Shown: positions 3,407-48,535 of the stretch, piece after piece
How positions within the stretch are numbered: the stretch's first letter is position 1
Layout: each line of letters opens with the position of its first letter
Source: an uncultured bacterium
GTDB taxonomy: Bacteria > Patescibacteriota > Minisyncoccia > UBA6257 > GWB1-50-10
Length of the DNA: 64,000 nt
NCBI GenBank assembly: GCA_963713955.1
Contig: OY970216.1
Coordinates: forward strand, 506,252-570,251
Direction: 5' to 3'
Made by a program: the position numbers and the translations under genes
Notes under the pieces: model-generated
What the model was told of the DNA's origin: nothing
Seen by the model: only the letters and a program-made list of their open reading frames with translations
The model's database searches: none

Positions 3407-3919
3407 ATGAATCCACGCAATCAACGCGGTAACTCCCGCTTCAAGCCCAAAAAAAGCGAGTATCAGGAAAAGGTCCTGGAAATAAAAAGAGTGACCAGGG
3501 TTATGGCCGGCGGCAAAAGAATGAGCTTCAGGGCAATCGTCGTCATCGGCGACAAGAAAGGGAAAGTCGGCCTCGGGATCGGCAAAGGCCTGGATGTAGC
3601 CGCTTCCGTGGAAAAAGCAAAAAAACAAGCGCAGAAAAATCTCATTACGGTCAATATAAAAGACGGCCGCACGATACCCTATGAAATAGACAAGAAATAC
3701 GGAGCGGCGAAAGTCAGGATAAAGCCGGCGAAGGCCAATCACGGCCTTATCGCCGGCGGTTCCATGAGGTCCGTCTTGGAACTGGCAGGAGTGAAAGACG
3801 TATCGGCAAAAATCCTCGGGAGAACGACCAATAAACTCATGAATGCGCTCGCCACGTTGAAGGCCTTGCGCGACTTGGAGAAAATTGAAGAAAAGACGGA
3901 AGACGTCAAAGCAAACTAA
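3407..3919 (+). CDS. rpsE: 30S ribosomal protein S5
   Basis: VTRVMAGGKRMSFRAIVVIGDKKGKVGLGIGKG...GLIAGGSMRSVLELAGVKDV. L15 follows directly with no L30 gene between. Confidence 0.9.
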   Translation: MNPRNQRGNSRFKPKKSEYQEKVLEIKRVTRVMAGGKRMSFRAIVVIGDKKGKVGLGIGKGLDVAASVEKAKKQAQKNLITVNIKDGRTIPYEIDKKYGAAKVRIKPAKANHGLIAGGSMRSVLELAGVKDVSAKILGRTTNKLMNALATLKALRDLEKIEEKTEDVKAN

Positions 3920-4346: not shown

Positions 4347-5614
4347 AAAAGTTCCTGCAACTTTTCAAGCTACCTGATTTGAGGAAGAAGGTTTTGAGCG
4401 TTATTTTCCTGCTTTTTGTTTTTAGACTCTTCGCCGCCATACCCATCCCCGGCATCAATCCCGCCGAGCTCCAGCAATTTCTTTCATCCAATCAGCTCTT
4501 CGGATTCTTAAACATCTTCTCCGGCGGAGGGCTCTCTAACCTGTCAATCATGATGCTCGGCGTGAGCCCCTACATAACGGCCACGATCATCATGCAGCTC
4601 CTCACGATAGTTTTTCCTCAACTCAAGAAAATCTACTACGAGGAGGGAGCGCAAGGCCAGGCGAAATTCAACAGGATATCGAGATATATAACGGTACCGC
4701 TCGCAATGCTTCAGGCGTACGGTTTTCTCAATCTCTTGATAGCTCAGAAAGTATTGAGTCATTTGCTTTTCCCCGAACTTATGGCAAACATCCTCGTCGT
4801 AACGGCGGGGAGCGTTTTCCTCATGTGGATAGGCGAATTGATATCCGAATACAAGATAGGCAATGGCGTATCGCTCATCATATTTGCAGGTATCATAAGT
4901 CGCCTTCCCCAAGAGGTGGGAACGATGTTTTTCAATTTCAACCCCGCGATGCTCCCGACATACATCGCGTTCGTGGTTCTCGCCATCATCGTCATCGCCG
5001 GCGTTACATTCATCAATGAAAGCGAAAGGAAAATACCCATTTCCTATGCCAAGCAGGTGAGGGGAATGAAAATGTACGGTGGAGCATCGACATATCTTCC
5101 CCTCAAAGTGAATCAAGCCGGTGTGATACCGATCATATTCGCCATTTCTCTCCTCTTGTTCCCGCAGTTTTTCGCCCAAGCGGCCGCCGTCATCTCGTCA
5201 AATCTATCCCTTACCCTAAACCGCTGGTCGAGTAATTTTTTCAACAACATACCGCTCTACAGCCTGGCTTATTTCGTCCTCGTGGTGCTTTTCACGTATT
5301 TCTACACCGCCATAACGTTCGATCCCGAAGAAATATCGAAAAATCTGCAGCGGAGCGGCGGGTTCATACCCGGTATACGACCGGGCGAAGCGACGACTTC
5401 CACGATCACGAGGATAATTCACCGCATAACCTTGTGGGGAGCTGTTTTTCTGGGGGTTGTGGCCATATTACCGAATATCACCCAGATGGCGACGGGCATA
5501 ACGTCTCTCACGATCGGCGGCACTGCGCTCTTGATCGTCGTCGCCGTCGCGCTTGAGGTGATGAAGGCCGTCGAATCCCAGCTCACCATCAGGGAGTATG
5601 AAGGGATCATGTAA
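4343..5614 (+). CDS. secY: Preprotein translocase subunit SecY
   Basis: 423-aa polytopic membrane protein with conserved SecY segments (LGVSPYITATIIMQLL, GGTALLIVVAVALEVMKAVESQL). Follows L15 as in the spc operon. Confidence 0.95.
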   Translation: MKKFLQLFKLPDLRKKVLSVIFLLFVFRLFAAIPIPGINPAELQQFLSSNQLFGFLNIFSGGGLSNLSIMMLGVSPYITATIIMQLLTIVFPQLKKIYYEEGAQGQAKFNRISRYITVPLAMLQAYGFLNLLIAQKVLSHLLFPELMANILVVTAGSVFLMWIGELISEYKIGNGVSLIIFAGIISRLPQEVGTMFFNFNPAMLPTYIAFVVLAIIVIAGVTFINESERKIPISYAKQVRGMKMYGGASTYLPLKVNQAGVIPIIFAISLLLFPQFFAQAAAVISSNLSLTLNRWSSNFFNNIPLYSLAYFVLVVLFTYFYTAITFDPEEISKNLQRSGGFIPGIRPGEATTSTITRIIHRITLWGAVFLGVVAILPNITQMATGITSLTIGGTALLIVVAVALEVMKAVESQLTIREYEGIM

Positions 5615-7308: not shown

Positions 7309-9090
7309 ATGGCCTCAAAAGAGGTGGTTTGCCAGAACTGCAAAAATCAGTTCGCGATCGAGCCGGAGGATTTTACATTTTACGAGAAAATCAAAGTCCC
7401 ACCGCCGACATTTTGTCCAACATGTAGGCTCCAGCGACGAATCGTTTGGAGGAATGAACGGAATCTTTACAGGCGGCCGGATGATATTACCGGCAAGATT
7501 GTTTTTTCTATGTTCTCCGAGGAAAAGAAAGTGAGAGTATGGGACAGGAACGAATGGTGGCAAGATACCTGGAATCCTCTTGATTATGGTCGAGAGTATG
7601 ATTTCAATAAAACCTTCTTCGCTCAATTTTTGTCTCTGTTCCTCAGCGTACCGCTCCCCAGTAGATGGGCGACAGATGTTATAAACAGTGATTATTGCAT
7701 GAATTGTGCCCATCTTAAGAATTGCTATCTGGTGTTTTATTCTAATTACGATGAAAATTGCTGCCATGGCATTGGCTTAAATGATTGCAAGGACTGCCTC
7801 GATAACGCTTATCTCACAAAGGGTGAGTTATGCTATGAAAGCTTTAAACTGGAAAGATGTTCTCGCCTTTTCTTCTCGTCCAATTGCGAAGATTGCGTTG
7901 ATGTTTATCTATCGAAGGATTGTATTGGATGCTCCGATTGTTTTGGTTGTGTGAATCTTAGAAACAAGCAATTTTATATATTCAATCAACCTTATTCCAA
8001 GGAGGACTACCACAGGAAGCTCAAGGAAGTAAATCTAGGATCATACTCTGATCTGAGCGTAACGGCAATAAAGGCGCACGAGTTTTGGCTCAGTTTCCCT
8101 GTTCCGGCGGGATACATACGTCATTCCTCTAATGTAAATGGTAACTATCTCTATAACTCAAGAGACACGTTGAATTCTTTCTTCATCAATGGCGGAGAGA
8201 ATCTAAAGAATTGTGCCTTCTTCCTCAATCCACCAATCAGAGATAGTTATGACTATACGATTTTCGGAAATAATTCGGAGTTGATATATGAGAGTACTGT
8301 CGTGGGAGAAGGATCAAGTAAGTTGAAATTTTGTATGGGATGCTGGCCGAATGCGATTGATTTCGAATACTGTATACAATGCAATTCTTCCTCCCACCTC
8401 TTCGGTTGTGTTGGGTTGCGTAGTAAGGAATACTGTATCCTGAACAAACAATACTCCAAGGAAGAATATGAAAAGCTCATTCCTCGGATCATCCAGCACA
8501 TGAATGATATGCCCTATAGCGATTCCCAAGGAAGGATATACAAGTATGGCGAGTTCTTCCCTCCTGACCTCTCTCCCTTCGCATACAATGAAACCATTGC
8601 CCAAGAATACTTTCCTCTCACGAGGGAAGAAGCAGAAAGGCAGGGATACAAGTGGAGGGAGGCCGAAGAAAAGAACTACCAAATCACCAAGGAATTCAAG
8701 GATTTACCCAATCACATCGGGGATGTTGACGATTCCATCCTCAAGGAAACCATAGCTTGCGCTCATAACCAGGAATGCAATGAACAGTGCACAAAGGCTT
8801 TCAAGATAATCCCTGAAGAATTAGCATTCTACCGACGTATGAATCTTCCCTTACCCAGATTATGTCCTAACTGTCGGCATTATGAGAGGTTGAAACAAAG
8901 GAATCCCCTTAAACTGTGGCATAGGAAATGCATGTGTGGAGGGAAGACGAGCGAGAATGGCGTATATGAAAACACTGTATCTCACAGCCACGGAGAAGGA
9001 AAGTGTCCCAATGAGTTTGAAACAAGCTATTCACCGGAGAGACATGAAATAGTATATTGTGAAAGTTGTTACCAGTCAGAGGTAGTTTGA
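7309..9090 (+). CDS. Cysteine-rich protein of unknown function (593 aa). It has zinc-ribbon-like motifs at both ends and an internally duplicated Cys-repeat core
   Basis: N-term CQNC...CPTCRLQRR and C-term CPNCRHYERLKQRN ribbons. Tandem Cys units (CMNCAHLKNC, CKDC, CEDC...CIGCSDCFGC). The duplicated signature FGCVxLRxKxYxIxNxxYSKE(D/E)Y occurs twice. Terminal cluster CMCGG...CPNE...CESC. Confidence 0.75.
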   Translation: MASKEVVCQNCKNQFAIEPEDFTFYEKIKVPPPTFCPTCRLQRRIVWRNERNLYRRPDDITGKIVFSMFSEEKKVRVWDRNEWWQDTWNPLDYGREYDFNKTFFAQFLSLFLSVPLPSRWATDVINSDYCMNCAHLKNCYLVFYSNYDENCCHGIGLNDCKDCLDNAYLTKGELCYESFKLERCSRLFFSSNCEDCVDVYLSKDCIGCSDCFGCVNLRNKQFYIFNQPYSKEDYHRKLKEVNLGSYSDLSVTAIKAHEFWLSFPVPAGYIRHSSNVNGNYLYNSRDTLNSFFINGGENLKNCAFFLNPPIRDSYDYTIFGNNSELIYESTVVGEGSSKLKFCMGCWPNAIDFEYCIQCNSSSHLFGCVGLRSKEYCILNKQYSKEEYEKLIPRIIQHMNDMPYSDSQGRIYKYGEFFPPDLSPFAYNETIAQEYFPLTREEAERQGYKWREAEEKNYQITKEFKDLPNHIGDVDDSILKETIACAHNQECNEQCTKAFKIIPEELAFYRRMNLPLPRLCPNCRHYERLKQRNPLKLWHRKCMCGGKTSENGVYENTVSHSHGEGKCPNEFETSYSPERHEIVYCESCYQSEVV

Positions 9091-13064: not shown

Positions 13065-13196
13065 GTTGAAAGCAAATTGCTTTGCTTTCAACGGGCGAAT
13101 ACCTGTGTTAATTTATATATAGTAATTTCGCCCCGGAAGAACGCGTTCCTGATATCTTCGATATAACTGGTTCGCTCGTTCGAAATGAAAAATAAT

Positions 13197-13268
13197 GGGC
13201 ATATAGTTCAGTGGTAGAACGCTGTCCTGATAAGACAGAGGTCCCAGGTTCAATCCCTGGTATGCCCA
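13197..13268 (+). tRNA. tRNA-Ile (anticodon GAU)
   Basis: Manual cloverleaf: GGGCATA/TATGCCC acceptor, GTTC/GAAC D stem, CTGTC-CTGATAA-GACAG anticodon arm, CCAGG-TTCAATC-CCTGG T arm. 72 nt. It is flanked by inverted repeats (..CGAAATGAAAAATAA / TTCTTTTTCATTTCTCG..). Confidence 0.9.
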
Positions 13269-13293
13269 CCCATTCTTTTTCATTTCTCGCTCG

Positions 13294-13341
13294 CTGCCAG
13301 TTATAAGACAGAGGTCGTAGGTTCGATTCCTACCATGCGCA
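13294..13341 (+). other. 3' fragment of the second tRNA-Ile-like sequence (anticodon-loop-like AGTTATAAGACAG, variable AGGTC, T arm GTAGG-TTCGATT-CCTAC, acceptor CATGCGC, A)
   Basis: Pairs perfectly with the 5' fragment at 13047-13053. The middle part (D stem 3' strand and anticodon stem 5' strand) is absent. Confidence 0.5.
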
Positions 13342-13423
13342 CAAGCGAGTGAAATGGAAAAGTATTTTTACATTTCCGAGCGCAGTCGCATGGGAACCGA
13401 AAGGTCACCATACGCACCAATCA

Positions 13424-13495
13424 GGGCCCGTAGTTCAGTGGCAGAACGCCGCTTTTGCAAAGCGGAGGTCAGGAGTCCAATTCTCCTCGGGTCCA
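13424..13495 (+). tRNA. tRNA-Ala (anticodon UGC)
   Basis: GGGCCCG acceptor (with a G3-U70 pair), GTTC/GAAC D stem, CCGCT-TTTGCAA-AGCGG anticodon arm, AGGAG-TCCAATT-CTCCT T arm. 72 nt. Confidence 0.9.
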
Positions 13496-13610
13496 CCTTG
13501 AGTATGTGCTCAACTTGTGTTCGAAAAAGCCTCATGAATACTAGAATTTCTCGGCCAGACCTAGCTTTTCCAAGTTCAAGTCCTCGGGGTATTGATTAAG
13601 AGTAGAAAGT

Positions 13611-41410: not shown

Positions 41411-42016
41411 ATGTTTGCGCTCATATCAAATCTGGTCATTGAGATAATCAAGTACTTAGGCTATCCCGGCATCTTCCTTTTGATGACCTTGGAGAGCGTG
41501 AATATTCCCATCCCCTCTGAAATCATCATGCCTTTTTCCGGATTCCTGGCCCTCCAAGGCAACTTGAATTTTTGGCTTGTCGCACTCATGGGAACCTTGG
41601 GAAATATGGCTGGTGCGTTCCTATCGTATTTCCTCGCCGAATGGATATTGGAGATCAGGGGGAAATACAAGATACTTCAGGTCATCCTTTCCCACCGGCA
41701 CCTTGAAAAAACCGACGCGTGGTTCAAAAAATACGGCTCATACTCCATATTCTTCGGAAGGATCATTCCGATGGTCCGAACGTTCATATCCCTCCCGGCC
41801 GGCATCGCGAAGATGAATGCAATTAAGTTTACGTACCTCACGTTTCTCGGCTCTTTCCTCTGGTCGGCGTTTTTGACCTACATTGGATTTTTCCTCGGAA
41901 ACAACTGGACGATAATCCAAGAATATTTCAAAGAACTGGATTACGTGATACTCGTCGTCATCGCCGCCGCCCTGCTCTACTGGCTTATCGCAAGGAGAAA
42001 GAGAAAACGAACTTAA
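41411..42016 (+). CDS. dedA: DedA/VTT-domain (SNARE-associated) membrane protein
   Basis: YLGYPGIFLLMTLESVNIPIPSEII..., FFGRIIPMVRTFISLPAGIAKMN, typical DedA motifs. Confidence 0.75.
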   Translation: MFALISNLVIEIIKYLGYPGIFLLMTLESVNIPIPSEIIMPFSGFLALQGNLNFWLVALMGTLGNMAGAFLSYFLAEWILEIRGKYKILQVILSHRHLEKTDAWFKKYGSYSIFFGRIIPMVRTFISLPAGIAKMNAIKFTYLTFLGSFLWSAFLTYIGFFLGNNWTIIQEYFKELDYVILVVIAAALLYWLIARRKRKRT

Positions 42017-42149
42017 TTTGTACGAACGCCACCATATTCCGAAGAAGGCTTTTTTAGTGAGGAGGATTTATTCGAAAGAAAAACTCGCCGATGAGGGATA
42101 TGGCGGCGGGAGAACCCCTTGCGTTTTTTCCCGAAGTATGCTATCATAA

Positions 42150-42258
42150 GTCGTGTGTGAGTGTTAGGCTTTCCCTGTTCTCAAGAGGCGACTCGCGAGG
42201 AAATCCAAGGAAAGCCCTCAATAGTTTCCAAGAGCCCCGCAAGGGGCTCTGGTTTTTT
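42150..42258 (+). ncRNA. Candidate small RNA. A 5' single-stranded GUGUGUGAGUG, a 53-nt hairpin (GGCUUUCC...GGAAAGCC) and an intrinsic terminator GAGCCCCGCAAGGGGCUC + UUUUUU
   Basis: Stand-alone hairpin + terminator architecture 134 nt after the dedA stop. No credible ORF. Its 5' segment is complementary to the loop of the secA-leader hairpin (42330-42338). Confidence 0.4.
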
Positions 42259-42310
42259 ATGGAAATGGCGTTATTCTTAATATGCAGCGGAAAAACCGGA
42301 GTCGGACTTT

Positions 42311-42376
42311 CTCTGCGGCCACGGTTGAGCACTCACACAACAAAAAACTAAGGAGGTCACCACCGCGGCCGCAGAG
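42311..42376 (+). promoter_or_regulatory. Strong 14-15-bp hairpin in the secA 5' region (CTCTGCGGCCACGGT ... ACCGCGGCCGCAGAG). Its 36-nt loop contains CACUCACACAAC and AAGGAGG
   Basis: Located 62 nt upstream of the secA ATG. The loop sequence is complementary to 42153-42163. Confidence 0.5.
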
Positions 42377-42438
42377 GCGGCCCGACCGGATATTGGAACA
42401 CCTCACGGCGTCCCGACATCCTAAGCGTTGACTAAAAA

Positions 42439-44946
42439 ATGGAAATCCTCACCAAGCTTTTCAAAGACAACAATCTCAAAAGATACGAGCGCACCGCCGA
42501 GAAAATCAATTCGCTTGAACCGGAAATTGAACGCCTGAACGCGGAAGAACTCAAGGAAGAAATGCTGAAGCTGAAAGAAGAGTTGAGAAACGGGAAAAAA
42601 CCGGATGACATCCTGCCGCGCTCTTTCGCCCTTACGAGGGAAGCGGCAAAAAGAACCCTGAAGCAGAGGCATTTCGACGTTCAGATGGTGGGCGGCATGG
42701 CTCTCCACGAGGGAAAAATCGCCGAAATGAGGACCGGCGAAGGCAAAACGCTTGCGGCGACGCTCCCCACGGCCCTCAACGCCGCGACGGGGAGGGGTGC
42801 CCACGTGATAACCGTGAACGATTACCTTGCCAAGAGAGACACGGTCTGGATGGGGCAGATATACTACGCGTTGGGCTTCACGATCGCGTGCTTAGTCCAC
42901 GACGCGGCCTACGTCTACGACCCGTCGTTCGTGGGAGAAGAAAACCTGGACAAGGAACGGGACGCCATCGGCGGCTTCAAGGTCGTCGAAAAGTTTCTCC
43001 GGCCCGTCTCCCGAAAAGAAGCTTACGCTTCGGACATCACCTACGGCACCAACCACGAATTCGGCTTTGACTACCTGCGGGACAATCTGGCCGTCCGACT
43101 CGAAGACAAGGTACAAAGGGATTTTCATTACGCGATCATAGACGAAGTGGACAGCATCTTGATAGACGAGGCGAGAACGCCTCTGATCATCGCCGGCCCC
43201 GACCAAGAGTCGAGCGAATACTACCGGGTTTTCGCCCGCATTGTCTCAAACCTCGAGGAAGAAACCGATTACACCGTCGACGAGAAATTGAGGGCCGTGT
43301 CGATAACCGAACCCGGCATAGAAAAGACGGAAAAACTGGCCAACGTCCAAAACATCTACGCGCCGGAGAATCTGCGTCTTGTCCATTTTCTCCAGGAAAG
43401 CCTCAAAGCCAAAGCGCTCTTCAAGCGGGACAAGGATTACATCGTCAAAAACGGGGAAGTCGTGATCGTCGACGAATTCACCGGCCGGATGCTCATGGGG
43501 AGGAGGTATTCCGGGGGGCTCCACCAAGCCATAGAGGCCAAAGAAGGAGTGAATGTGCGGCAAGAAGACCGAACATACGCCCAGATCACCATCCAGAACT
43601 ATTTCCGCCTTTATGAAAAAATAGCGGGCATGACCGGGACGGCCGAGACTTCCGCCGAAGAATTCAACAAAGTTTACAACCTGGACGTCGTGACGATCCC
43701 CACCAACAAAAAGATGATACGGGAAGATCTGCCTGATGCAATCTATAAAACAAAAAAAGCGAAATATGAAGCGATCGTCAGAGAGATAAAGGAACAAAAA
43801 GAAAAAGGCAGGCCGATTCTCGTCGGAACGACGTCAATAGCCAACAATGAGATCATTTCTTCTTATCTCGCGAAAGCCGGGATACCACACGAGGTCCTGA
43901 ACGCCAAAAACCACGAACGCGAGGGAATGATCATTGCGCAGGCGGGGCGCGCGGGCGCCGTGACCGTCGCGACCAACATGGCCGGCCGCGGCGTCGACAT
44001 CGTCCTCGGAGGCAATCCGCCCGACCCCGATGAAGCGGAAAGAATAAAAGCAGCCGGCGGGCTCCTCGTCGTCGGAACCGAACGGCACGAGGCGAGGAGG
44101 ATTGACAACCAACTTCGCGGGCGCGCCGGGAGGCAGGGAGATCCCGGCTCGACGGAATTTTTCCTCTCCCTCGAAGACGATCTCATGCGCATCTTCGGAG
44201 GCGACCGGATCAAGCACCTCATGGAAACTCTGAACTTCCCGGAAGACGTTCCCATCCAATCCAAAACGGTCATGAGGGCGATCAACCAAGCTCAGGTCAA
44301 AGTCGAGGGAGCAAACTTCGACATCCGGAAGCATCTCCTAGATTTCGACGATGTATTGAACAAACAGAGAGCGGCAATTTACAACAAAAGGACCAAAATA
44401 CTGGAAGCGGGGGACAAGAATGAAATATTGTCAATTGTGAGGGAAATGATCGGTAATTTTGTTTCCGAAAACGTGGCCGCTCTGAAAAACAAATTGGAAT
44501 TGAATCCGGAGGAAAAAGAACAAACCGAAAAACAGATAAGCGAGTTGGAGAACAAAGCGTCAAAAATCCCGGAAAGCATCGACCAACTCAAATCCACGGT
44601 GATAGCCCAGCAAATCGTGAGGATGATGGATGCGCTCTGGATCGATCACTTGGAAAACCTCGAAGGATTGAGGGAGTCGGTGAACATCCGCGCTTACGGA
44701 CAGCACGATCCGCTCATCGAGTACCGTCGGGAAGCCTACCTCCAGTTCCAAGAGTTCAACAAGGCTCTCGAATCATTGGTGTATGGCACGGTATTCCAGA
44801 TTTTCGACATGGACCTCGGCAAAATGTTCGTGCCCCAAAACGCCGCGCCGCGCGAGACTCCGCCGCCGGAATTCAAGAACATCGGCAGGAATGACCCCTG
44901 CTGGTGCGGGAGCGGTTTGAAATACAAAAAATGCCACGGAAAATAA
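42439..44946 (+). CDS. secA: Preprotein translocase ATPase SecA
   Basis: DEAD-like motor motifs (MRTGEGKTLAATLP, DEVDSILIDEARTPLIIAG), C-terminal zinc motif CWCGSGLKYKKCHG. Confidence 0.95.
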   Translation: MEILTKLFKDNNLKRYERTAEKINSLEPEIERLNAEELKEEMLKLKEELRNGKKPDDILPRSFALTREAAKRTLKQRHFDVQMVGGMALHEGKIAEMRTGEGKTLAATLPTALNAATGRGAHVITVNDYLAKRDTVWMGQIYYALGFTIACLVHDAAYVYDPSFVGEENLDKERDAIGGFKVVEKFLRPVSRKEAYASDITYGTNHEFGFDYLRDNLAVRLEDKVQRDFHYAIIDEVDSILIDEARTPLIIAGPDQESSEYYRVFARIVSNLEEETDYTVDEKLRAVSITEPGIEKTEKLANVQNIYAPENLRLVHFLQESLKAKALFKRDKDYIVKNGEVVIVDEFTGRMLMGRRYSGGLHQAIEAKEGVNVRQEDRTYAQITIQNYFRLYEKIAGMTGTAETSAEEFNKVYNLDVVTIPTNKKMIREDLPDAIYKTKKAKYEAIVREIKEQKEKGRPILVGTTSIANNEIISSYLAKAGIPHEVLNAKNHEREGMIIAQAGRAGAVTVATNMAGRGVDIVLGGNPPDPDEAERIKAAGGLLVVGTERHEARRIDNQLRGRAGRQGDPGSTEFFLSLEDDLMRIFGGDRIKHLMETLNFPEDVPIQSKTVMRAINQAQVKVEGANFDIRKHLLDFDDVLNKQRAAIYNKRTKILEAGDKNEILSIVREMIGNFVSENVAALKNKLELNPEEKEQTEKQISELENKASKIPESIDQLKSTVIAQQIVRMMDALWIDHLENLEGLRESVNIRAYGQHDPLIEYRREAYLQFQEFNKALESLVYGTVFQIFDMDLGKMFVPQNAAPRETPPPEFKNIGRNDPCWCGSGLKYKKCHGK

Positions 44947-47580: not shown

Positions 47581-48137
47581 AGTTCCTCAACATTGACAAG
47601 GAGGAGTTGGAGAAAAAGCTTGAGGAAATCGGCGCTCGAAAAGCAGGGGATTATTTTTACAAGAGGATAGTTTTCGATTACCCCGATTTCCGCTTGAACA
47701 AAAGCGGTGCATGGATCCGTCTCCGCGACGAGGGGGACAGAATAACGTTGTCGTTCAAGCAGAGACTCGGCATAAAATCGGATAAGGGCGACGACGAGGG
47801 GATGAAAGAGATCGAGGTCGTCGTCGACGACTTCGACAAAACCGCTACGCTTCTTTCCGAGCTTGGATTCATCGAAAAGCACTATGCCGAGAACAAGAGA
47901 ACCCGCTGGGAGAAGGACGGCGTGGAATTCGACATTGACACCTGGCCGGCTCTGGAACCCTACCTTGAAATAGAATCATCGACATGGGAAAAAGTGGAGG
48001 AAGCGATCAGTTGGTTGGGGTTGAATCCCGCGGACAAAAGAATATTCTCCGCGAACCAAATTTACAAAATGAAGGGTATTAACGTGATCGACTATGTCCA
48101 CTTCGGCTTCGATAAACTTGTAAAAAGAGAGAAATGA
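47562..48137 (+). CDS. CYTH-domain protein (paralog of 18471..19013)
   Basis: MEEKEVKFLNIDKEELEKKLEEIGAR... has the same architecture and motifs as the first CYTH protein. Confidence 0.6.
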   Translation: MEEKEVKFLNIDKEELEKKLEEIGARKAGDYFYKRIVFDYPDFRLNKSGAWIRLRDEGDRITLSFKQRLGIKSDKGDDEGMKEIEVVVDDFDKTATLLSELGFIEKHYAENKRTRWEKDGVEFDIDTWPALEPYLEIESSTWEKVEEAISWLGLNPADKRIFSANQIYKMKGINVIDYVHFGFDKLVKREK

Positions 48138-48385
48138 TTGGAGAAGCAAAAAATTTGAAAACCGGGAGATACAAACACTACAAAGGCGACATCGTTGAGG
48201 TCACCGGAATCTCACTTCACAGTGAAACATTGGAAGAATTCGTGACTTACAAACACATCACCGGCAAACGAGCAGGCGAACCGCACTTCTGGGTCCGCCC
48301 GCTCAAAATGTTCCTGGAAAGCGTAAAAATCAACGGAGAAACAATTCCGCGCTTCAAATACCTCGGCAAACTCATCAGCAAATAG
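48134..48385 (+). CDS. DUF1653-family small protein
   Basis: GRYKHYKGDIVEVTGISLHSETLEEFVTYKHITGKRAGEPHFWVRPLKMF matches the DUF1653 (YKHYKG..Y...HSET.E..V.Y) pattern. Confidence 0.55.
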   Translation: MIGEAKNLKTGRYKHYKGDIVEVTGISLHSETLEEFVTYKHITGKRAGEPHFWVRPLKMFLESVKINGETIPRFKYLGKLISK

Positions 48386-48391
48386 CGCTGA

Positions 48392-48423
48392 GGAGGGTGG
48401 TCTAACGCATTAGACCACCCTCC
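48392..48423. terminator. Perfect palindrome GGAGGGTGGTCTAAcgcaTTAGACCACCCTCC between convergent genes (family member 2)
   Basis: 14-bp arms with a 4-nt loop. Same GGGTGGTCTAA arm as 9093-9118. Confidence 0.6.
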
Positions 48424-48535
48424 CATAAATCCCGTTAGAAGCTCACAGGGGGTATTCAACTCCGTGTTCACTATGGAGACTAAGCATTCATCCCCGCGGC
48501 TTGCCGCGGGGTTTTCTGCTTCTAACGGGATAAAA

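Follow-up and report, generated by a model that had tools for sequence, protein, structure and literature searches.

Does the DNA upstream of secA encode a small RNA (sRNA) that acts on the secA leader, and what would such an RNA control? We studied this in the window, the whole 64,000-nucleotide stretch of DNA that was analysed. A preliminary description of the window had proposed an sRNA that has a terminator of its own and a 5' end complementary to the loop of a large hairpin in the secA leader. It offered two readings, one long structured leader or an sRNA that makes a kissing contact with the loop to control secA. Bacteria of the candidate phyla radiation (Patescibacteria) have very small genomes and cannot be grown alone, and to our knowledge almost nothing is known about their RNA-based regulation. 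No earlier description of such an sRNA-leader pair was found in the literature and, as far as we found, it would be the first conserved sRNA-target pair described for these bacteria.

A predicted sRNA gene upstream of secA

The putative sRNA lies on the + strand at 42153-42258 and is about 105 nt long. The promoter predicted for it (42119-42147, + strand) consists of a -35 element TTGCGT (42119-42124), a 17-nt spacer, an extended -10 TG (42139-42140) and a -10 box TATCAT (42142-42147). This TTGCnT-N17-TGnTAnnAT layout aligned in 32 loci, as well as in the close relatives L003 and L001. The sRNA thus appears to have its own promoter, as expected of a trans-encoded base-pairing sRNA, and its transcription would start 6-8 nt 3' of the -10 box. 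At the other end, 42231-42258 (+ strand) has the GC-rich hairpin and U-run of a predicted intrinsic terminator, comprising an 8-bp stem with a GCAA loop (AGAGCCCC-GCAA-GGGGCUCU, 42231-42250), then GG and U6 (42253-42258). L001 has a different terminator stem sequence in the same place, also followed by a U-run, and the stem covaries across the sRNA family.

Between these signals, all on the + strand, are a 5' seed (site A', UGUGUGAGUGUU, 42154-42165, of which 42154-42163 is UGUGUGAGUG), an internal hairpin (42167-42216) and, between this hairpin and the terminator, a linker (site B', CCUC-AA-UAGUUU, 42216-42227). The hairpin had been described as 53 nt long; it is present but measures 50 nt. 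The predicted fold of the sRNA has an energy of -43 kcal/mol (z = -3.4). In the family alignment, compensatory changes were found in 16 of the 21 predicted pairs of hairpin and terminator taken together, and the consensus fold leaves both seed and linker single-stranded. Among relatives, all five elements from promoter to terminator are conserved, with the apical half of the hairpin differing between clades. The sRNA contains no conserved ORF, in agreement with the preliminary description. The proposed terminator held up, being kept through compensatory changes, and like the predicted promoter it is conserved.

The hairpin P1 of the leader

The stem first noted at 42311-42376 was recovered as a 15-bp core (42311-42325 with 42362-42376) with one A.C mismatch. 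It extends outward to 42299-42387 (z = -4.0), giving a hairpin, P1, of about 25 bp in the window. The 5' arm of P1 covers 42299-42325, with an outer extension at 42299-42309, and the 3' arm covers 42362-42387, both on the + strand. The folding energy of the leader in the window is -59 kcal/mol. The arms enclose a 36-nt loop (42326-42361, + strand; 33-38 nt among relatives) which contains GAGCAC (42327-42332), site A (42328-42339), an A-rich tract, site B (42345-42356) and GGAGGUCACC (42352-42361). Across 77 aligned instances of the motif, GAGCAC and GGAGGUCACC are invariant or nearly so.

The check for covariation in related genomes that had been proposed bore P1 out. In 47 sequences 95% of cells were paired and compensatory changes were found at 11 of 11 pairs, with a covariation score of 1.025 compared with 0.25 for shuffled and 0.07-0.23 for slid alignments. 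The covariance model matched the window at 42314-42373 (48.4 bits, E = 2.6e-8). Alignment with this model recovered P1, whereas MAFFT with RNAalifold misaligned the arms of the 77 instances and missed it.

Candidate -10 boxes for the leader transcript lie at 42272-42283 on the + strand (TATTCT at 42272-42277 and TAATAT at 42278-42283), and TAyyCT-TAA is conserved in L003 and L001. A -10-like box was found 3-14 nt 5' of P1 at 46 of 125 loci, compared with 10 of 118 control positions. In the window this box is weak, and is the weakest part of the arrangement. Promoter and terminator sequences together suggest that sRNA and leader are two separate RNAs, and the transcript ends given here are likewise those predicted from these signals.

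Two helices join the sRNA to the leader loop

The complementarity between the sRNA 5' end and the loop is present, and its size had been understated (9 bp exact, 11 with a G.U). Helix A has 10 exact pairs (42154-42163 with 42330-42339), and 12 pairs when one A-U and one G.U are included (42154-42165 with 42328-42339; -19.0 kcal/mol in RNAduplex). A second helix, helix B, joins the linker to GAGG (42353-42356) and AAACUA (42345-42350) in the loop (-10.6 kcal/mol).

Taken alone, an inverted match of one 10-mer is no rarity in 64 kb, and it might arise by chance from an ordinary intergenic region that bears a terminator and a hairpin unrelated to it. The pairing is more than chance because it is kept via compensatory changes in relatives, and the second pairing (42216-42227 with 42345-42356) behaves likewise. 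In a genome set of 31 pairs, helix A had an energy of -15.65 kcal/mol in cognate and -12.82 kcal/mol in non-cognate combinations, and helix B -12.13 and -9.40 kcal/mol, respectively. An independent metagenome set of 61 pairs gave -15.54 compared with -12.89 kcal/mol for helix A and -13.05 compared with -10.20 kcal/mol for helix B. None of 10,000 permutations in one set and none of 20,000 in the other matched the observed cognate energies. In a fixed-register test, helix A was 78% paired, compared with 26-43% when slid. One position of helix A was AU in 36 cases, GC in 21 and GU in 7, another GC in 36, UA in 7, AU in 4 and GU in 4, and the variable positions of both helices show several pair types each. 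The register of helix B is shifted by bulges and differences in loop length, and its support is the cognate versus non-cognate test. The G.U pairs are consistent with RNA pairing on the + strand. Chance complementarity, refuted by covariation and by the cognate tests in two independent data sets, is an explanation we give almost no credence.

The complementary segments are thus conserved in relatives, and the proposed pairing of the sRNA 5' end with the downstream loop covaries. Target pairing by both seed and linker appears to have been kept in evolution, as expected of a base-pairing sRNA. On these comparative grounds we regard the sRNA, the leader, P1, helix A and helix B as established. 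The interaction is best described as a two-site clamp, in which the linker and the A-rich/GGAGG half of the loop would also pair, rather than as the simple kissing contact suggested earlier.

Two helices of about 10 bp each on an already closed loop present a topological problem, and would need binding during transcription or opening of P1.

Distribution and gene context of the module

Over 100 related genomes and metagenome contigs carry the module, and the contig names include the Hainich groundwater wells H41, H43 and H51. The covariance model found the hairpin motif in 47 of 81 secA loci, with one match each and all on the + strand, and in about 95 metagenome contigs. With a regular expression the motif was found at 40 of 80 secA loci, in every case on the same strand as the gene. 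The search pattern also matched a few true tRNAs elsewhere that contain GAGCA...GAGGUCACC, a coincidence of sequence. A second GAGGTCACC in the window, at 48197, lies inside a small ORF and was rejected as a chance match. An exact-sequence look-up of the window's SecA returned no contig.

Four gene contexts were seen. The motif lies before murB-hpf-secA, hpf-secA or secA, or between rpsJ and rplC. The first of these is found in most relatives, and one clade carries the module in the S10 operon. The module is not secA-specific, contrary to the earlier proposal of secA as its target. P1 ends within about 25 nt of the murB, hpf or secA start codon at about 50 loci. In some loci, extra copies of site B occur in an accessory element X.

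A family HMM located the sRNA upstream of the leader motif on the same strand in 95 of the 128 motif loci, and sRNA and P1 always have the same strand and order. The gap between them has a median of 44 nt, being a few nt at the shortest and over 1 kb at the longest. The short median gap and the constant order would suit a single leader of about 290 nt, in which the sRNA terminator is leaky or attenuating and both pairings are intramolecular long-range pseudoknots. The good folding of 42150-42460 (z = -4.2) and the weak -10 box before P1 in the window also fit such a leader. It is harder to reconcile with a strong terminator that is kept by compensatory changes, with gaps of several hundred nt (more than 1 kb in L089 and L145) and with the enrichment of -10-like boxes just before P1. 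We therefore consider the single leader, one of the two readings offered at the outset, improbable.

In 15 loci, belonging to four unrelated families of P1-arm sequence, the 3' arm of P1 is also part of a stronger downstream hairpin. In these loci the alternative hairpin has a predicted energy of -27 to -40 kcal/mol, compared with -17 to -28 kcal/mol for P1, and is followed by a U-rich tract directly 5' of murB or hpf. The predicted structures demonstrate competition between P1 and a terminator in this subset of relatives, where P1 would be the antiterminator. No terminator was found after P1 in the window, L003 or L001.

These observations bear on a further explanation, in which sRNA and leader RNA together make up a free-standing bimolecular non-coding RNA that acts in trans, for example as a ribonucleoprotein scaffold or a ribosome partner, and the downstream genes are merely read through in a compact genome. 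Promoter-like elements are found at both genes, the gene context takes four forms and, in the S10-operon clade, a canonical promoter of the next unit lies 3' of the motif, which there resembles a free-standing RNA gene. Conserved unpaired GAG and UCACC and the apical CGAY-GAY-RUCG of the sRNA hairpin flank the junction, as in structured RNAs and not as in plain sRNA-mRNA pairs. The hpf, secA and ribosomal-protein neighbourhood also recalls the raiA motif RNA (PMC10861870). By contrast, building the 3' arm of the motif into a stronger terminator directly before a gene, as in the 15 loci, is a typical switch design and works against an RNA that needs P1. Five of these 15 loci were inspected and no clear promoter was found in the gap. 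The variability of the apical half of the sRNA hairpin between clades, and the lack of any protein partner linked to the module, also count against a free-standing RNA. We regard this explanation as rather unlikely, and prefer a regulatory role on the downstream genes.

Translation signals of secA

In the window the downstream gene is secA (42439-44946, + strand; Pfam SecA_DEAD, SecA_PP_bind, SecA_SW and SEC-C). The rest of its leader (42388-42438, + strand) has a local hairpin (42388-42421) followed by an A-rich GACUAAAAA before the ATG. This segment is outside the conserved module, since it is missing from L003 and L001, and 42388-42438 contains neither a Shine-Dalgarno sequence nor a -10 box. 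A Shine-Dalgarno-like sequence was found in only 11 of the 55 long ORFs of the window, and TATAAT stands 6-8 nt 5' of the ATG in several. The genome thus appears to be mostly leaderless. secA has no Shine-Dalgarno-like sequence and no TATAAT near its ATG, and therefore appears dependent on the module leader.

AAGGAGG (42350-42356) had been placed 60 nt from the secA ATG (42439); the actual distance is 82 nt. We rejected it as the secA Shine-Dalgarno sequence given this distance, its pairing with the sRNA, the lack of GGAGGT enrichment in the window and the lack of Shine-Dalgarno-like sequences in most genes. Two upstream ORFs, of 49 aa (42282-42431) and 86 aa (42091-42351), were also rejected. 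Neither has a Pfam match, and L003 and L001 lack the stretch that contains the 3' third of the 49-aa ORF. There is thus no support for a SecM-like arrest peptide.

The loop does resemble an ideal ribosome-binding region, with an A-rich tract and then GGAGGU. The leader might on that account be a decoy, or sponge, that titrates an sRNA whose real targets are elsewhere in the genome, and the extra copies of site B in element X would agree with this. However, the complement of the seed 10-mer has no other site anywhere in the window, not even when one mismatch is permitted, and most genes of the window offer no Shine-Dalgarno region as a target. Both helices also co-evolve freely with the leader at their variable positions, which is hard to square with constraint from other targets. 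A sponge is thus very improbable.

Proposed mechanism and significance

The explanation that we find best, and hold with modest confidence, is a two-part RNA regulatory module of Parcubacteria in which the sRNA acts as a two-site clamp on the leader loop and so sets the leader fold. The module probably controls whether the downstream growth-related genes are expressed. In this scheme, a strongly promoted sRNA of about 105 nt would be transcribed immediately 5' of a second transcript from the same strand that starts with the long GC-rich P1. The 5' seed of the sRNA would pair with the 5' half of the loop and the linker with the 3' half, forming helices A and B of about 10 bp each. The result would be a composite junction with the sRNA hairpin at one end and P1 at the other. 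Binding would most likely occur on the nascent leader, before the 3' arm of P1 is transcribed, and the adjacency of the two genes would favour capture. Once bound, the sRNA would fix the leader fold. In terminator-bearing loci it may lock P1 and so allow read-through into murB or hpf, a logic that would be T-box-like with a dedicated sRNA replacing the tRNA.

The secA 5' leader of the window should take part in the same complex, which may regulate translation, processing or stability of the secA mRNA. P1 of the window, in a leader of -59 kcal/mol, is stable enough to form unaided and no terminator follows it, so that the antitermination logic is not directly transferable to secA. Binding may stabilise or strain P1, so the sign of regulation could be opposite, and the read-through suggested for other loci gives only a presumed direction of effect.

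More tentatively, and with rather less confidence than we place in the module itself, we suggest a new class of RNA-sensing leader, the 'sRNA-box'. Here an adjacent dedicated sRNA would be caught during transcription in the leader loop by two co-evolving helices. The interlocked two-RNA junction would determine read-through or expression for operons related to growth (murB-hpf-secA, perhaps also the rplC operon). Such leaders would be widespread in the Parcubacteria class that includes this genome, where most mRNAs appear leaderless.

Knowing the partner from the outset is rare for a bacterial sRNA, and here the comparative support is comparable to that of an accepted riboswitch stem. The core growth genes that follow the module serve cell-wall synthesis, ribosome hibernation and protein secretion or encode ribosomal proteins. 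The module also prompts the question of how the few leadered genes are expressed in a genome that apparently uses leaderless mRNAs. Its architecture, with two helices in one hairpin loop and a competing terminator in some lineages, is open to experiments with RNA made from sequence alone.

Comparison with known RNA families and systems

The Rfam scan suggested in the preliminary description matched neither element to a family of Rfam 15, whether run at E <= 10 on this region of the window, at gathering thresholds on the window as a whole, or at E <= 5 or E <= 1 on 16 related loci. Matches to mir-622, mir-BART10 and mir-942 were rejected as generic long hairpins. PreQ1-I (RF00522) scored 14.5 bits at 42321-42357, against a gathering threshold of 39 (E = 4), and was treated as a chance match; it shares the A-rich tail followed by a Shine-Dalgarno-like sequence but differs in P1 and loop architecture. 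ARAGORN found no tRNA or tmRNA at 42100-42440, and there was no Rfam tRNA or tmRNA match there. SRP RNA, RNase P RNA, 6S RNA and small self-cleaving ribozymes, whose motifs were compared by eye, gave only short coincidences (e.g. AGGUCA) and had no Rfam support. Phage origin was also rejected, as a viral scan gave only a coding-region match and a tRNA.

The raiA motif RNA (RF03072) is a structured trans-acting RNA of unknown function found in Bacillota, usually beside raiA/hpf and with secA as a common neighbour (PMC10861870). It differs from the module in being a single RNA with P1-P6, two pseudoknots and 51 conserved positions, and is reported only in Bacillota and Actinomycetota. Its Rfam model matched none of the 17 sources scanned, which are from other taxa, and the likeness is one of gene neighbourhood only.

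OxyS-fhlA and CopA-CopT form complexes between the loops of two hairpins. The module resembles them in its predicted pairing at two sites, one of which covers a Shine-Dalgarno-like sequence, and in a composite junction with helices from both partners. It differs in that the single-stranded flanks of the sRNA hairpin would pair with two halves of one large loop, and in that no start codon follows its GGAGG.

The plasmid antisense RNAs of pT181 (RNAI/II), pIP501 (RNAIII) and pAMbeta1 are cis-antisense, fully complementary to their targets and induce termination. As proposed for the module, a small terminated RNA binds a loop in the leader while this is being transcribed, and thereby selects either a terminator or another fold. 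However, the module is chromosomal and tied to housekeeping genes, and its sRNA is not cis-antisense but is encoded upstream on the same strand wherever it was found (95/95), with two short covarying sites.

The T-box (RF00230) had no Rfam match in the window region (E <= 10) or in the 16 related loci (E <= 5 or E <= 1), and the module has no Stem I, specifier loop or T-box sequence. Each of its two contacts is a helix of 9-12 bp within a single hairpin loop. Antiterminator and terminator folds that exclude each other, as in the T-box, are predicted in the 15 related loci and are absent from the window, L003 and L001. The likeness is that a second RNA is recognised by a 5' leader through two contacts set apart from each other and that, in the terminator-bearing loci, a helix whose 3' strand is common to a more stable terminator would be an antiterminator needing stabilisation. 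Where the T-box binds tRNA, the ligand of the module would be a dedicated sRNA encoded next door.

A small RNA gene and a structured leader lie upstream of secA

A DedA/VTT-domain gene (41411-42016; Pfam) and secA (42439-44946; Pfam) are separated by 422 nt, and this interval contains every feature set out in the preliminary description, which had proposed a small RNA (sRNA) with its own terminator and a 5' end complementary to the loop of a secA leader hairpin. By its SecA, the window belongs to the Parcubacteria (Paceibacteria), within the Patescibacteria, near genomes labelled Jorgensenbacteria; the protein is 89% identical to that of the related locus L003 and 79% identical to that of L001. 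All parts of the sRNA gene described are present. A near-consensus promoter (TTGCGT, 17-nt spacer, TG, TATCAT; 42119-42147), from which transcription would start at approximately 42153, is followed by an unpaired 5' seed (UGUGUGAGUG; 42154-42163), a 50-nt hairpin (42167-42216), a 14-nt linker and a textbook intrinsic terminator (stem 42231-42250, U6 42253-42258). The coordinates and sequences first described were correct to within a few nucleotides, but AAGGAGG lies 82 nt from the secA ATG, not 60. In the free sRNA, seed UGAG (42158-42161) is predicted to pair with linker CUCA (42217-42220) at the hairpin base, and the consensus sRNA has a comparable GUGUG opposite CACAC. Leader binding would thus need to break this closing stem apart. 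The -35 box of the sRNA promoter is overlapped by a weak terminator-like hairpin that has a T-run (GCGGGAGAACCCCTTGC GTTTTTT; 42106-42122) and could terminate the dedA transcript.

The GC-rich leader stem, P1, pairs 42311-42325 with 42362-42376 and extends outward to 42299-42387, reaching about 25 bp. Its loop segment CACUCACACA (42330-42339) is indeed the exact complement of UGUGUGAGUG, with no other copy of the 10-mer in the 64-kb window. Neither a terminator nor a U-tract follows P1 in the window, and the 50 nt from P1 to the secA ATG lack conservation even in L003 and L001. A local hairpin in this interval (42388-42421; GGAUAUUGG..GACAUCC) is missing from both relatives. Because it repeats GGCGNCCCGAC, a sequence of the outer 3' arm of P1, it could conceivably pair instead with the outer 5' arm.

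Both RNAs are conserved

SecA relatives were retrieved from 80 species-level genomes and their upstream regions searched. The hairpin loop was the most conserved stretch of the intergenic region, giving a motif of variable P1 and the loop NN-GAGCACUCAyyyAAC-(A-rich)-uuGGAGGUCACC(R). A regular expression found this motif in 40 of the 80 loci, invariably on the secA strand, whilst a covariance model built from 16 instances gave a single match per source in 47 of 81 sources, all on the + strand (window match 42314-42373, 48.4 bits, E = 2.6e-8). Covariation analysis in relatives, a check suggested at the outset, showed 95% of P1 cells paired in the model alignment, compensatory changes at 11 of 11 pairs and a covariation score of 1.025, compared with 0.25 when shuffled and 0.07-0.23 in slid registers. 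Metagenome contigs scanned by pattern, without secA anchoring, yielded 120 stretches, of which about 95 were true instances and the remainder chance matches including three tRNAs. The search pattern also matched genuine tRNA genes (L129, L161, L174 and L202:4040-4110) in the order D-stem GAGCA, anticodon stem, variable loop GAGGUC and T-stem ACC. The two conserved boxes of the motif thus resemble a tRNA core in sequence and order, which was treated as coincidence because no tRNA model matched the motif.

The promoter, seed and hairpin of the sRNA are kept in L003 and L001, and the L001 terminator has a different stem sequence at the same position. By eye and then by alignment, the sRNA architecture was found far outside the close relatives: a TTGCnT-N17-TGnTATAAT promoter whose -10 box is followed after 5-18 nt by a seed, then a hairpin, a linker and a GC-rich terminator. 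A family HMM detected the sRNA at 95 of 128 motif loci, each time upstream of the motif and on its strand; several of the remaining loci have too little upstream sequence. RNAalifold on 35 members predicted the hairpin and terminator, with seed and linker unpaired, and compensatory changes occurred at 16 of 21 pairs, among them a change from C-G to U-A in the apical CGAY-GAY-RUCG stem. The gap from sRNA to P1 is variable (median 44 nt; 10th-90th percentile 4-275 nt). A -10-like box is enriched 3-14 nt upstream of P1 (46 of 125 loci; 10 of 118 control positions), and where it is present P1 would form the mRNA 5' end. A single long leader with intramolecular pseudoknots is possible but unlikely, given that the sRNA terminator is conserved through compensatory changes, that the spacing varies and that -10 boxes are enriched.

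Two helices link the sRNA and the leader loop

In helix A the sRNA seed pairs with the 5' half of the loop, (G)CACUCAyyyAAC. Invariant CACUC lies opposite GAGUG and the variable yyy positions co-vary with the seed (loop/sRNA: window CACUCACACA/UGUGUGAGUG; L006 CUCAUUCAAC/GUUGAAUGAG; L025 CACUCACUAA/UUAGUGAGUG; L005 UCACCAA/UUGGUGA). Helix B, unseen in the preliminary description, joins the sRNA linker (42216-42227) to the A-rich/GGAGG half of the loop (42345-42356), with AAACUA..GAGG pairing with CCUC..UAGUUU in the window, AAUUUGGA/UCCAAAUU in L001, CAAACAGAAUU/AAUUCUGUUUG in L046 and CAAAUAGAAC/GUUCUAUUUG in L030. Window duplex energies were -19.0 (helix A) and -10.6 kcal/mol (helix B).

Every loop segment was compared with every whole sRNA using RNAduplex, with no register fitted to the cognate partner. 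Among 31 genome pairs, cognate partners averaged -15.65 versus -12.82 kcal/mol for non-cognate ones in helix A and -12.13 versus -9.40 kcal/mol in helix B, and 0 of 10,000 permutations reached the observed mean. The 61 non-redundant metagenome pairs gave -15.54 versus -12.89 and -13.05 versus -10.20 kcal/mol, respectively (0 of 20,000 permutations). Both helices co-evolve, and chance complementarity is effectively excluded. In a stricter test of helix A, with the register anchored on sequence alone, 78% of cells were paired versus 26-43% when slid, and the covariation score was 0.203 versus 0.137 shuffled (0 of 500 as high) and 0.03-0.08 slid. Single positions showed AU 36, GC 21 and GU 7, or GC 36, UA 7, AU 4 and GU 4; G.U pairs were frequent, consistent with pairing between + strand RNAs.

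The two sites are 1-6 nt apart on the loop strand, whilst on the sRNA the hairpin lies between them, so the sRNA hairpin and P1 would both bridge the outer ends of the A+B duplex. Conserved unpaired nucleotides (leader GAG and UCACC(R); sRNA yGAGU and CCC(ACAC)) would cluster at this junction. Two helices of about one turn within an already closed loop would be topologically awkward, as the sRNA hairpin or terminator must thread the loop. Were the sRNA to bind the leader during its transcription, ahead of synthesis of the P1 3' arm, the complex would form much more easily, which would also explain the persistent adjacency of both genes.

Gene context and accessory elements

The module is not restricted to secA. 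The majority order is sRNA, motif, murB, hpf (S30AE family) and secA (Pfam; tblastn), some loci have the motif immediately before hpf-secA, and in the window's clade (window, L001, L003-L005, L008-L011) it immediately precedes secA. One genome has a 92-aa GIY-YIG nuclease ORF inserted between motif and secA (L006:2193-2471). The module is not phage-borne.

A further clade carries the module in the S10 operon, ordered tuf, rpsJ, sRNA, motif, a third small structured RNA, rplC, rplD, rplW and rplB (Pfam), with a canonical promoter after the motif. The third RNA (L100 ~3440-3700, L109 ~1700-1840, L120, L159, L177, L085) has its own canonical promoter (TTGACN-17-TGnTAnnAT), conserved UUCGG and GAUUUAGC, and a terminator CAGCCGGCUAAGUCYGGCUG followed by a U-run. 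It had no Rfam match and may be a ribosomal-protein leader or attenuator.

An accessory element was seen downstream of the motif (L002:907-1066, L052:1944-2107, L097 ~2737-2905, L118 ~5353-5445, L127, L128) or upstream of it (L110, L114, L171), positions in L118, L128 and L171 being motif-oriented. It comprises a site B copy (..AAUUG), a 60-150-nt multi-hairpin insert (UCCCGC..GAUCCCG..CGGGAUC..GCGGGA) and GAGAGGUCACC, followed in most cases by a P1 3' arm copy, and is sometimes in tandem repeats. The element, which had no Rfam match, resembles an additional 3' half of the motif, one that might bind either the sRNA linker or, in competition, the P1 5' arm.

The sRNA probably sets the fold of the leader

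At 15 loci the P1 3' arm doubles as the 5' arm of a longer hairpin with a U-rich tract, directly before murB or hpf. These loci represent four unrelated P1-arm sequence families (..AGCCGCUCCRCCCAG, CGCCACCCCACGC, CUACCACUCAYC and CCCGUCACCGCUCAAA), and no clear promoter was found in the gap at the five checked. In all 15, P1 (-17 to -28 kcal/mol) is weaker than the alternative hairpin (-27 to -40 kcal/mol), and the largest family has a mismatch in P1 and none in the terminator. Such an arrangement typifies an antiterminator in need of assistance, as found in T-box and 'on' riboswitches. At about 50 other loci the murB, hpf or secA start codon is at most ~25 nt from the P1 end.

The evidence, computational and drawn from metagenome-assembled sequences, on balance favours a general mechanism in which a dedicated sRNA, by clamping the loop of the leader, determines how the leader folds; in lineages with a terminator this would give read-through. 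The strongest rival is a free-standing two-RNA complex acting in trans. The S10-operon context and the conserved junction nucleotides would suit such a complex, but terminators built on the shared P1 arm would not, and we regard it as possible though rather unlikely. That the leader is a decoy is very unlikely.

The sRNA-leader complex should form in the window, whose genome appears largely leaderless, with genes mostly lacking a Shine-Dalgarno (SD) sequence (for example, those with ATGs at 7309, 15917, 17704 and 26175). An SD-like sequence within 20 nt was seen for only 11 of the 55 long ORFs, and the window shows no enrichment of GGAGGT. Several ORFs have TATAAT 6-8 nt upstream of the ATG. 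The secA gene lacks both an SD-like sequence and a -10 box of its own, and thus appears to belong to a small set of genes expressed through a long structured leader. Control could act on translation of an mRNA with a leader but no SD sequence, on processing that yields a leaderless mRNA, or on the stability of the mRNA; both the sign of the effect and the output for secA are inferred.

Other features of the window

Adjacent tRNA-Ile(GAT) and tRNA-Ala(TGC) genes (13196-13497) are arranged as in an rRNA operon spacer. No rRNA was detected in the whole 64 kb at Rfam gathering thresholds, and the pair seems unlinked from rRNA genes. Two strong inverted repeats (GAGGAGGGTGGTCTAACGCATTAGACCACCCTCCC and CCCCGCGGCTTGCCGCGGGGTTTTCT; 48388-48520) follow a small ORF (48136-48386) and look like back-to-back terminators between convergent genes.

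Comparison with known RNAs

An Rfam scan had also been suggested in the preliminary description. Neither the sRNA nor the leader hairpin was matched in Rfam 15, whether in the window region (E <= 10), the whole window (gathering thresholds) or 16 related loci (permissive thresholds). The sole named weak match, PreQ1-I (14.5 bits against a threshold of 39), was rejected, its score deriving from the A-rich tract and GGAGG. ARAGORN found no tRNA or tmRNA at the locus, and no account of an RNA of this kind in Patescibacteria emerged from a full-text literature search. A dedicated chromosomal sRNA encoded next to its partner on the same strand, a clamp of two helices in one hairpin loop, conserved junction nucleotides and wide distribution in an uncultivated bacterial class form a combination that matches none of the families tested, and we know of no family with all these features. 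The broader concept, in which a small RNA determines how a leader folds, is already known.
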